The notes under the pieces were generated by a model. The model searched no databases. It worked only from the letters and a program-made list of their open reading frames with translations, and was not told the DNA's origin. The position numbers and the translations under genes are program-made. A DNA stretch of 8,196 nucleotides from a virus (taxonomy: Duplodnaviria > Heunggongvirae > Uroviricota > Caudoviricetes), in the IMG/VR virus record IMGVR_UViG_2671180984_000037. One strand, given 5' to 3'. Shown here piece after piece: positions 1,806 to 8,196 of this stretch (the first letter of the stretch is position 1; each line of letters opens with the position of its first letter).

Positions 1806-2048
1806 TCACCTCCGTTGCATTGCGCGTAATTTTTTCAGGCGCATTTCCTGCTCAGTGCCCGCCAGAATTTTGCGGTACTCCTGTTGGTCAATATGTTCGA
1901 ACAGGTTGTTGAACTCACCAATGCGTACCCGTCCGGAGCGCCCGTCCATGCGTCGAAAGAACACTGAGTGCTGAGTACTGCGAGTAATCACCACAGGGTA
2001 TCCGGCTCTGTCCGTGTATATCTGACCACGTTGAATCAGAGCGAACAT
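1806..2048 (-). CDS. Hypothetical phage protein (80 aa)
   Basis: ATG at 2048 with AAGGA 5 nt upstream, tightly packed in the leftward operon. Charged composition looks protein-like. No family recognised. Confidence 0.5.
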   Translation of the reverse strand: MFALIQRGQIYTDRAGYPVVITRSTQHSVFFRRMDGRSGRVRIGEFNNLFEHIDQQEYRKILAGTEQEMRLKKLRAMQRR

Positions 2049-6084: not shown

Positions 6085-6759
6085 TTAGGCCTTTATTGTG
6101 TATCTTCTTGGTTTTCCCGAGAAAATCACTGTACCAATTATAGAGCAATTACCGTTAATCTTAATGTAAGGCTCAGGCCAGTTTGGGTTTAATGCTTTGA
6201 GATAACGCTGTGTTCCATCTTCTATCAATCGCTTGAAGGTGGTTTCGCCTGTATCGTGCATCAATGCAATAACGTCGTCACCGTGGCAGGCAGGGACTTC
6301 GGGATCAACAAAAATCATGTCTCCAGGGCGGTACTCATCAATCATTGAATCACCAATCACCCGCAAGATATAAGTCATTTCGCCACAGGGTACAGGGCAG
6401 GGATACGTTTCTGCTGTGCTCAAATCAACCTCAGAATAGCCAACTTCTTTCCATGCTCCGGCCTGTACCCATGATATGACAGGGACTAACGTTATTTGTT
6501 TGTTAGTGATTGAAACATCAGGTTTTTTTGTGATGTTCGTTGTCTGGTGTTCTTGATCAAGCCATCCGACAGGCAGGTCGAAACATTTTTCGATGTGGCG
6601 TGCCATGCTGTCACCGATATTTTTAGTAGCGCCATCCCCCATAAACCTGCTGGTTTGGGTTGGCTCGCGATCAATCATGGTGGCAAAGGATGAATTTCCG
6701 CCAACACCATCTCTCAGTTTTCTGGCGTTAGACCGCCGGATGTCATGGATTGTTTTCAT
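6085..6759 (-). CDS. cI: CI-type phage repressor, N-terminal HTH plus C-terminal LexA-like S24 peptidase domain (224 aa)
   Basis: C-terminal domain has the autocleavage catalytic motifs VIGDSM (Ser) and TFKRL (Lys), and a linker Ala-Gly (WVQAGAW) as the candidate cleavage site. Divergent from a Cro-like gene with operators between them. No Shine-Dalgarno before the ATG, consistent with a leaderless PRM transcript as in lambda cI. Confidence 0.9.
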   Translation of the reverse strand: MKTIHDIRRSNARKLRDGVGGNSSFATMIDREPTQTSRFMGDGATKNIGDSMARHIEKCFDLPVGWLDQEHQTTNITKKPDVSITNKQITLVPVISWVQAGAWKEVGYSEVDLSTAETYPCPVPCGEMTYILRVIGDSMIDEYRPGDMIFVDPEVPACHGDDVIALMHDTGETTFKRLIEDGTQRYLKALNPNWPEPYIKINGNCSIIGTVIFSGKPRRYTIKA

Positions 6760-6849: not shown

Positions 6850-7050
6850 ATGAAAGCGTATTGGGACTCTTTAACCAAAGAACAGCAGGGCGAGTTGGCC
6901 GGAAAAGTTGGCTCAACACCTGGCTACTTACGGCTGGTTTTCAATGGTTATAAAAAAGCCAGTTTTGTGCTGGCGAAAAAACTTGAGCAATGCACGTCAG
7001 GTGCAATTACGAAATCTGACTTAAGACCGGATATCTATCCGAAAGATTAA
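6850..7050 (+). CDS. Cro-like small HTH regulator, YdaS family (66 aa)
   Basis: The ORF track begins at 6745, which would overlap the cI start and the operators. The ATG at 6850 with GGAGG 10 nt upstream gives MKAYWDSLTKEQQGELAGKVGSTPGYLRLVFNGYKKASFVLAKKLEQCTSGAITKSDLRPDIYPKD. The C-terminal LRPDI motif and size match YdaS-type Cro analogues as I remember them. Confidence 0.65.
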   Translation: MKAYWDSLTKEQQGELAGKVGSTPGYLRLVFNGYKKASFVLAKKLEQCTSGAITKSDLRPDIYPKD

Positions 7051-7081: not shown

Positions 7082-7651
7082 ATGAGGCTAACCGTGGGTA
7101 AGTATCACTGGAAAGTAGAAAAACAGCCTGAGTGGTACGTGAAAGCTGTCAGAAAAACTATCGCAGCGTTGCCGGGGGGTTACGCTGAAGCTGCTGAGTG
7201 GCTGGATGTAACAGAGAACGCATTATTTAACCGCCTTCGTGCCGATGGCGATCAGATTTTCCCGCTGGGATGGGCAATGATTTTACAACGTGCTGGTGGC
7301 ACTCACTTCATTGCTGACGCTGTGGCGCAGTCTGCAAATGGCGTCTTTGTGTCTCTTCCTGACGTCGAGGATGTGGACAATGCCGATATTAACCAGCGTT
7401 TACTGGAAGTCATTGAACAGATCGGCAGTTATTCAAAACAGATTCGTTCGGCAATCGAAGACGGTGTAGTGGAACCGCATGAGAAGACAGCAATTAACGA
7501 CGAGCTGTACCTCTCAATTTCGAAGCTGCAGGAGCATGCAGCACTTGTCTACAAAATTTTTTGCGTTTCAGAAAGTAATGACGCCCGCGAGTGTGCAGCT
7601 CCGGGCGTCGTGGCGTCGATTGCTTCTGGTTGTGGAGAAACTAACGCATGA
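7082..7651 (+). CDS. YdaT-like / CII-analogue regulatory protein (189 aa)
   Basis: Immediately follows the Cro-like gene in the rightward operon, the position of cII (or ydaT in Rac-type prophages). Family call is by synteny and general resemblance, not confirmed. Start could be ATG 7082 or GTG 7094 (GAGG 6 nt upstream). Confidence 0.5.
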
Positions 7652-7986
7652 ACAGTTTAACAACACACTACCGTCGCTCGCAACTGATTGCGCTTCCTGT
7701 ACCGGGTGGAAAAGCGAAGGTGGAGTATTGCTATGCAGTAAATGTACCAGGTGACAGGGAAATTGTAACCCACAGCTTTGCAGAGTGGGCTGTGGGGGAT
7801 TTCAACCGGCAGAAGGAGACAGTCCTTTGCGACAAGTTAACCGCTGGTTCAAAGATCACTACGGAGTGCCCGTCAGAGTCATTCGTTGGGAGCCGGAAAC
7901 ACAACGGGTTATCTACCTCCGTGAAGGCTATGAGCATGAGTGCTTCAGCCCGCTCGAACAGTTTCGTCGTAAATTCAGGGAAATAG
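7648..7986 (+). CDS. Hypothetical ORF coupled to the ydaT-like gene; N-terminal ~60 codons look coding, 3' portion doubtful
   Basis: ATG at 7648 overlaps the TGA of the ydaT-like gene (ATGA), with GGAG 10 nt upstream. From about 7830 onward the translation becomes Ser-rich and low-complexity ([22 protein letters not shown]) while another frame becomes protein-like. Confidence 0.3.
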
Positions 7987-8006
7987 AGGTCGGTCATGAG
8001 CACTAA
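7827..8006 (+). CDS. Hypothetical small ORF in the alternate frame (59 aa from TTG 7827; frame open from 7770)
   Basis: Protein-like translation with E. coli-typical codons ([56 protein letters not shown]). AAGGAG lies 8 nt upstream of the in-frame TTG at 7827. Its stop overlaps the replication-gene start by 11 nt. No ATG in frame. Confidence 0.3.
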
Positions 8007-8196
8007 ATTAACCGGCTATGTATGGGATGGTTGCGCAGCGTCAGGCATGAAATTATCCAGCGTGGCAATTATGGCCCGCCTGGCTGATTTCAGTAATGAC
8101 GAAGGTGTGTGCTGGCCATCAATTGAAACCATTGCCCGTCAGATTGGCGCGGGGATGAGTACCGTCAGAACGGCTATCGCACGGCTGGAAGCAGAA
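7996..8196 (+). CDS. Replication initiator, O-like, N-terminal winged-helix domain; 5' partial, runs off the window
   Basis: ATG at 7996 with AGAGG 6 nt upstream. Translation [67 protein letters not shown] matches the HTH N-terminus of lambdoid replication initiators as remembered, and the gene sits in the canonical post-cII position. Confidence 0.75.
   Translation, partial: MSTKLTGYVWDGCAASGMKLSSVAIMARLADFSNDEGVCWPSIETIARQIGAGMSTVRTAIARLEAE

Follow-up and report, generated by a model that had tools for sequence, protein, structure and literature searches.

Genes that lie out of frame within another gene of the same strand are familiar from phages, as in Rz/Rz1 of lambda and the D/E and A/B pairs of phiX174, and in these pairs one frame is older and well folded while the other is compositionally odd or disordered. 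A similar pair is described here in an 8,196 nucleotide (nt) stretch of a caudoviricete genome (IMG/VR record IMGVR_UViG_2671180984_000037), referred to below as the window. Positions 7648-8006 very probably (our estimate is about 0.8) carry two real genes of e14-type prophages, ymfM and a gene for a small protein of Pfam family DUF4222, which overlap out of frame on the same strand, the ymfM frame being kept open by selection. This reading draws on several features of the sequence: both frames are conserved, the two genes occur separately elsewhere, the DUF4222 start is conserved, and substitution patterns carry the marks of selection. The overlap joins the known class of nested or overprinted phage genes but departs from the lambda and phiX174 pairs in that the embedded gene, DUF4222, is the older, folded and conserved one and runs 20 nt past the end of the enclosing gene, whose extension over it is young and predicted to be disordered.

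The window corresponds to positions 1857213-1865408 of NZ_CP058682.2 and belongs to an e14/SfIV-like lambdoid prophage adjoining mlrA. The features of the overlapping pair, with products given in amino acids (aa), are as follows.

7648..7986, + strand: ymfM, 112 aa, ATG start and TAG stop (7984-7986); K-12 b1148, cell division inhibitor YmfM.
7648..7833, + strand: YmfM N-terminal domain (N-domain, about residues 1-62), delimited by alignment, single nucleotide polymorphism (SNP) counts and stand-alone forms elsewhere.
7794..7798, + strand: G5 run (GGGGG), polymorphic, an indel hot spot in rare variants.
7813..7818, + strand: Shine-Dalgarno sequence AAGGAG of the DUF4222 gene, inside ymfM codons 56-57, with an 8-nt spacer to the TTG.
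7827..8006, + strand: DUF4222 gene, 59 aa, TTG start (7827-7829) and TAA stop (8004-8006); WP_001250269.1 in the Prokaryotic Genome Annotation Pipeline (PGAP).
7827..7986, + strand: dual-coding stretch (160 nt), in which ymfM codons 60-112 and the stop share nucleotides with DUF4222 codons 1-54.
7984..7989, + strand: junction at which the TAG of ymfM continues as GAGG (7986-7989), probably the Shine-Dalgarno sequence of the replication gene.
7996..8196, + strand: 5' end of the replication-initiator gene (Pfam HTH_36, E = 8e-11), ATG at 7996-7998, sharing its frame with ymfM.

Relative to ymfM, DUF4222 is read in the -1 frame, and ymfM is accordingly the +1 frame of DUF4222. An earlier annotation made from the letters alone (the original prediction) had described an open reading frame (ORF) from ATG 7648, a frame switch, a second frame running to 8006, and the AAGGAG, TTG and GGGGG motifs, and all of these lie where it had placed them.

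The closest described relative is ymfM (b1148) of the e14 prophage of Escherichia coli K-12, which is the same gene, with the same ymfK-ymfT-ymfL-ymfM-replication synteny and an identical nested DUF4222 protein, whose TTG corresponds to K-12 position 1,204,001. The 359 nt of the pair are 98.3% identical to those of K-12, 109 of the 112 residues of YmfM are identical, and the full-length protein matches PHROG 1170 over residues 1-112 (E = 3e-70). The gene also has the operon position expected of ymfM, after a LexA-like repressor, a cro-like gene and ymfL, and before the replication gene. Differences from K-12 are the sequence GGGTG in place of the G5 run, and the ymfN chimera of K-12, whereas the replication gene of the window is of intact length but labelled 'frameshifted' in the matching RefSeq record. 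Like most members of the Pfam DUF4222 proteins from phages and prophages of Enterobacterales, the embedded product is 59 aa long, and its gene lies just 5' of a replication-initiator gene. In other clades, however, DUF4222 genes are free-standing and their +1 frame is full of stops, while here the gene is overlaid by the 3' half of its upstream neighbor.

About 2,700 E. coli records carry the ymfM/DUF4222 locus, and current annotations disagree over it, each displaying one gene of the pair. The K-12 MG1655 annotation gives ymfM alone, as do phage records and Prokka-type records, whereas PGAP genomes, including the record identical to the window, annotate DUF4222 and not ymfM, leaving 7652-7826 empty. 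PHROGs holds families for both frames, plus a 63-aa family that matches a rare frameshift variant.

The two coding regions occur apart in other prophages. Diversity was sampled by exact-protein look-ups and by a scan seeded with DUF4222, and YmfM N-terminal patterns were searched in a set with a single genome for each species. In Erwinia, Klebsiella and Mixta (L011-L013), an N-domain gene of 65-71 aa is followed by an ORF of 234-264 aa, a DUF4222 gene of 59 aa and the replication gene. In Entomohabitans and Atlantibacter (L009, L010), an N-domain gene of 75-78 aa stands directly 5' of the replication gene without DUF4222, and in L126 and L128 an N-like gene ends at the DUF4222 ATG in an ATGA junction. 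The L126/L128 and L011-L013 prophages share with the window the same two families in the same order and operon, but there the upstream gene stops at the DUF4222 start or is separated from it by the intervening ORF, with no dual coding. Stand-alone N-domain proteins (L009-L013, L126) are 59-78 aa long, and a library search with the N-domain only returned two length classes, of about 60-77 and 100-123 aa. Because of these separate arrangements and the bimodal lengths, the YmfM N-domain and DUF4222 are, on sequence grounds, independent genes. No Pfam or NCBIfam family spans both. The locus also provides a natural example of overprinting with internal controls, in which the same two families are found separated, abutting and overlapped.

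The original prediction had included a frameshift-inactivated gene and a sequencing indel in the homopolymer among its options, and had proposed that homologues be compared for a single protein of about 115 aa; that comparison returned two separate conserved genes with the same overlap, an outcome that the prediction itself had named as refuting a frameshifted gene. The notion of one ancestral gene of this size, broken by a frameshift mutation or a homopolymer sequencing error, has in its favor that one base joins the frames and that joined variants occur, although rarely. Its probability is negligible, given that the region is 100% identical to that of many independent complete genomes, that the two-frame layout is common to all diverged lineages (at 42-65% protein identity), and that another gene separates the parts in other genera. 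The layout of 112 aa plus 59 aa is the dominant form in thousands of genomes, with fused or 63-aa proteins being rare (3 to 14 members, versus more than 1,600 for the 112-aa clusters). These rare variants comprise P0063, P0067, P0077 and P0065 (14 members), along with the fusion-type P0059 and P0030, and are explained, as far as their sequences tell, by indels at or near the G-run.

The second frame is open from GTG 7785 to the TAA at 8004-8006 (73 aa) and, as the original prediction had noted, is protein-like. It matches Pfam DUF4222 (PF13973) over model positions 1-52 of 53 with 68.7 bits (cutoff 27; E = 3e-19), and the AlphaFold2 model of the 59-aa protein has a mean predicted local distance difference test score (pLDDT) of 83.7 and is predicted to be a small beta-barrel. 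There are 139 homologues, and most of those with a name are annotated as DUF4222 proteins. The DUF4222 start, which may be TTG, ATG or GTG, is always found +179 nt from that of ymfM in lineages with a standard N-domain, and is preceded by a GGAG/GGAGG-type motif in most of ten lineages, the motif being weak or unclear in L105 and L106. The upstream GTG at 7785 was considered as an alternative start and rejected, as a stop intervenes between the two positions in relatives, K-12 among them, and conservation as a start is confined to 7827. Two overlapping small genes, the smaller using AAGGAG-TTG, had been the last of the options in the original prediction, and it is the one supported by the conserved overlap and by the separate genes elsewhere.

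The opposite strand of this region carries a 90-aa ORF (7731-8003, - strand) that is codon-aligned with DUF4222, and long open runs on the minus strand recur in relatives. It was rejected as a gene and is treated as a by-product: stops in this frame need TTA, CTA or TCA codons in the sense strand, and since DUF4222 has two Leu and one Ser, the chance of the antisense frame being open is, estimated from codon counts, close to that of a coin flip.

The two parts of YmfM differ in their conservation. An alignment of relatives shows residues 1-62 to be conserved down to 42% identity, with 25 invariant columns, and residues 63-112 to be poorly conserved. In the AlphaFold2 model, pLDDT is 56-72 in the N-terminal part and falls to 31-37 in residues 68-112, which predicts disorder in the tail (about 50 aa); the model is too weak for a fold search. 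These results bear out the change of character that had been noticed after about 60 codons. Polymorphism was examined in 125 e14-like copies representing 60 haplotypes; a scan of viral contigs with the YmfM alignment yielded near-identical copies only and was used for this purpose. Outside the overlap (7648-7826) there are 21 synonymous versus 6 nonsynonymous polymorphisms in ymfM, so the N-domain is a real coding region and, judging from these counts, is under purifying selection at the amino acid level. No match for the YmfM frame was found in Pfam, and a search of solved structures by sequence returned none for YmfM or the DUF4222 protein. An exhaustive search gave weak, multi-stretch matches of about YmfM residues 13-52 to large Listeria-Bacteroides (Flg_new) or DUF7507 repeat proteins; homology to the Listeria-Bacteroides repeat proteins was rejected, the matches looking like an accumulation of repeat scores.

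Within the overlap, ten SNPs are synonymous in DUF4222 and nonsynonymous in YmfM, and these include every common one (e.g., 7922 T>C, in 69 copies). The six SNPs that are nonsynonymous in DUF4222 are all rare, and a DUF4222 nonsense codon is seen in one single copy. Between K-12 and the window the DUF4222 proteins are identical, and the YmfM tail differs at three residues. In comparisons of lineage pairs, conservation is always lower in the +1 (ymfM) frame than in that of DUF4222. On this evidence, the amino acid constraint in the overlap lies on DUF4222. At matched DUF4222 identity, synonymous divergence is only a little lower in overlapped than in non-overlapped genes, at 0.47 vs 0.53, 0.44 vs 0.47, and 0.37 vs 0.44. 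The hydrophobic content of the tail is 0.19, against 0.34 in the +1 frame of free-standing genes, a comparison confounded by differences between DUF4222 clades.

These data also bear on the view that ymfM is the sole gene, and that the DUF4222 frame of e14-type phages is an untranslated relic or by-product. The RefSeq annotation of K-12, with ymfM alone, is in keeping with such a view, as are the TTG start and the DUF4222-frame nonsense alleles in L007 and L048 (see below). We regard it as very unlikely, since all common SNPs of the overlap are DUF4222-synonymous and DUF4222 is more conserved than the tail, both between K-12 and the window and across lineage pairs. The single position of the DUF4222 start in every lineage, with a GGAG-type motif 5' of it in most, the Pfam score far above the cutoff and the confident predicted fold likewise speak for a translated gene.

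The ymfM frame remains open where chance would often close it. The wobble positions of DUF4222 are the second positions of YmfM codons, and when DUF4222 is recoded synonymously, about two stops are expected in the ymfM frame, with a probability of 0.06-0.13 per lineage that it stays open. No stop was observed in any of the nine lineages (9/9), while the remaining frame carries 2-6 stops versus about 3.5 expected. For the position of the first stop, genes were chosen by DUF4222 similarity only and grouped into clusters that share less than 90% nucleotide identity. In all ten overlapped clusters (10/10) the +1 frame first meets a stop at DUF4222 codon 52-57, and in 17 distinct free-standing DUF4222 genes from the separate arrangement it does so anywhere from codon 0 to 56. 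Codon choice points in the same direction. Where a Val or Leu codon precedes an A-initial codon, the stop-forming choices (GTR, CTR, TTR) are used at 0 of 30 sites in overlapped genes versus 33 of 61 in free-standing ones (Fisher p = 6e-8), and within the overlapped genes themselves NTR codons occupy 10 of 22 harmless places (p = 4e-5 against the 0/30 at risky sites). A neighbor-joining tree requires at least seven independent changes at two conserved Val-Ile sites, all of them C<->T, and on the same tree harmless four-fold sites use all four bases. Every test of frame openness gave the same direction, and the ymfM frame is open even where the DUF4222 proteins are only about 41-45% identical and synonymous sites are saturated. 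Taken at face value, these patterns place the continuity of the ymfM frame, and not the sequence of the tail, under selection, and the locus offers an example of selection on frame continuity without selection on sequence.

A different explanation for the open frame is that the pair is real but the long ymfM extension incidental, a stop having been lost once in a clade with a stop-poor +1 frame, so that the tail has no selective value. The barely constrained tail sequence would fit, as would the stand-alone N-domain proteins of 59-78 aa, which indicate that the family as a whole needs no tail; moreover, the per-lineage probability of an open frame (0.06-0.13) is not tiny and the lineages share ancestry. 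We think this unlikely, because it does not account for the absence of stop-forming codons at risky sites when they are common at harmless sites and in non-overlapped relatives, for the repeated changes restricted to C<->T, for the persistence of the frame at saturated synonymous divergence, or for the ymfM stop never being more than about 10 nt from where the next gene starts.

Several points nevertheless weigh against a pair of translated genes with a selectively open ymfM frame. Relatedness among the lineages makes the Fisher p-values exaggerate independence, so that they are upper bounds on the strength of the evidence, and the tree-aware count of seven changes is modest. Constraint on the tail sequence appears to be at most weak. 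DUF4222 nonsense alleles with ymfM intact occur in L007 (codon 7) and L048 (codon 3), and from these two natural alleles it follows that at least some prophages, which may be defective ones, can do without DUF4222. As a start codon TTG is weak, and it is crossed by the ribosomes that translate ymfM, and the production of both proteins is something that we infer from sequence.

The G5 run, which the original prediction had placed in the switch zone, is a minority allele. At 7797, 81 of the 125 e14-like copies, and K-12 as well, have T instead of G, and the resulting GGGTG gives a TGA in the DUF4222 frame; from these alleles the run would be at most a mutational hot spot. Programmed -1 frameshifting from ymfM into DUF4222 at or near the run, which would make a fusion of the N-domain with DUF4222, was also considered. 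The DUF4222 frame of the window is open for 24 codons 5' of the TTG, and fusion-type database proteins exist (P0065, P0059 and P0030 above), both in its favor. However, an X XXY YYZ slippery heptamer in the ymfM frame is absent from nine of ten lineages, the exception being the L106 mosaic, and the predicted RNA fold of 7780-7860 is no more stable than shuffled sequences (z = 0.0). The usual GGGTG allele places a TGA in the frame that would be entered, the open stretch 5' of the TTG is much shorter in the other N-domain lineages examined (1-14 codons), and the fusion variants are rare and explained by indels. The candidate was rejected, and we judge programmed frameshifting here to be highly improbable.

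The 3' end of ymfM is closely tied to the start of the replication gene. The original prediction had the second frame overlapping this start, and an overlap does exist, but with the ATG at 7996-7998 it amounts to 11 nt, DUF4222 ending 8 nt past the ATG codon. In all overlapped lineages examined, the ymfM stop is at most 10 nt from the replication-gene start, on one side of it or the other, and in arrangements that lack DUF4222 or have it separated, the N-domain gene extends 3-19 nt beyond the start of its neighbor. The TAG stop of e14-type ymfM is formed by the DUF4222 codons ATA|GAG, and across lineages this junction retains either ATAGAGG or ATAAGGG. The replication-gene ATG follows 9 nt after the ymfM stop, the interval consisting of the three codons AGG TCG GTC. 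This tight packing would be compatible with translational coupling. Readthrough of the one ymfM stop would fuse YmfM to the replication protein, and relatives have TAA there.

For the two-gene reading with a selectively open frame, the following scheme can be proposed. YmfM would be translated from the ATG coupled to the ymfL stop, giving the N-domain (about 62 aa) and then a tail (about 50 aa) read in the +1 frame of DUF4222, while DUF4222 translation would begin at its own Shine-Dalgarno sequence and start codon within ymfM. Synonymous DUF4222 codons that would create a stop in ymfM would be selected against, leaving the ymfM frame open, and this would be why ymfM always ends no more than about 10 nt from the replication-gene start. 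The long frame may be maintained because the protein requires its tail, or because the frame delivers ribosomes to the replication-gene start by termination-reinitiation coupling, and the two seem about equally likely.

The overlap has consequences for the interpretation of ymfM genetics, as sfiC, a division inhibitor for which the search lasted 35 years, is by common acceptance ymfM. The complete ymfM ORF was cloned in pBAD24, and the gene was also deleted, by Ansari et al. (bioRxiv 10.1101/2020.11.19.390815), who reported filamentation and loss of the Z-ring that were independent of SulA, SlmA and MinC, and a contribution of ymfM to SOS filamentation. Earlier screens had recovered fragments holding all of ymfM, and a 2024 study made ymfM deletions in UTI89. 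In this published work ymfM is treated as a single gene and the nested gene is never mentioned; in the literature collection searched, DUF4222 occurs as a single mention in each of five papers, none in a title or abstract, and no paper joining ymfM with ribosome profiling was found. A construct that ends at the ymfM stop carries the ribosome-binding site of DUF4222, its TTG and 53 of its 59 codons. Every published ymfM clone includes the DUF4222 Shine-Dalgarno sequence, the TTG and at least 53 of the 59 codons, and most of DUF4222 is lost in every ymfM deletion. Because clones and deletions affect both genes, the attribution of SfiC to YmfM has not been separated from DUF4222. It is plausible that SfiC is the 112-aa YmfM protein, and the conserved, lineage-specific N-domain favors this. 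A further, rather doubtful reading is that the SOS-inducible SfiC division block is caused by or requires DUF4222, or alternatively that the tail hands ribosomes on to the replication gene, locking division inhibition, DUF4222 and replication initiation together translationally. Some single-base changes leave one frame's protein unaltered and put a nonsense codon in the other (C7833T, which occurs naturally in L048, and T7838A, one of ten listed), and the question of YmfM versus DUF4222 is therefore directly testable.

The early-right operon of the window has the order ymfK, ymfT, ymfL, ymfM and replication gene, the genes upstream of ymfM being as follows.

6085-6759, - strand: ymfK, LexA/cI-like repressor.
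6850-7050: ymfT, cro-like.
7094..7651, + strand: ymfL, CII-like (NCBIfam NF041471 YmfL, E = 6e-50; Pfam Phage_CP76; PGAP annotation of the identical record).

The gene before ymfM had been called ydaT/CII-like; the CII-like part of that description holds, and the gene itself is ymfL. Its TGA stop (7649-7651) and the ATG of ymfM overlap as ATGA, and a GGAG motif (7634-7637) lies 10 nt 5' of that ATG. Two starts are possible for ymfL, the earliest ATG in its ORF, at 7082 (189 aa), and the one used by PGAP and K-12, at 7094 (185 aa). At the other end of the operon, RefSeq labels the replication gene a frameshifted pseudogene in the record that is identical to the window, and the prophage copy may be replication-defective.

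A second PGAP 'DUF4222 domain-containing protein' (80 aa) is encoded at 1806-2048 (- strand) in the same prophage, beside the excisionase and integrase, and BLASTP detected no pairwise similarity between it and the copy at 7827-8006.

Variants of the overlap itself were also seen. In the database proteins P0020, P0021, P0023, P0025 and P0029, YmfM residues 1-88 are shared and are followed by unrelated sequence, which suggests a recurrent rearrangement, insertion or assembly breakpoint within the overlap at about 7912 (after YmfM residue 88, DUF4222 codon 29). Three very different N-terminal modules are found in frame with the same +1-frame tail over an e14-type DUF4222 (L105:2501-2839, L106:2501-2809 and L132:968-1351), and the 'LC.NLT'/DUF4222 start region, where they join, looks like a point of module exchange. 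In an Atlantibacter metagenome-assembled genome (L010:2501-2728), a 75-aa YmfM-like protein ends in VQGNRGRS, and the third frame of the window reads IQGNRGRS at about 7972-7995, so that it looks as if most of DUF4222 had been deleted from an e14-type ancestor. Finally, GCA_032052235.1 (L101:2501-2862) has a gene record of 362 nt, not a multiple of three, that extends from the ymfM start to the DUF4222 stop; its recorded 113-aa product fails direct translation, an odd annotation of the ymfM/DUF4222 overlap.

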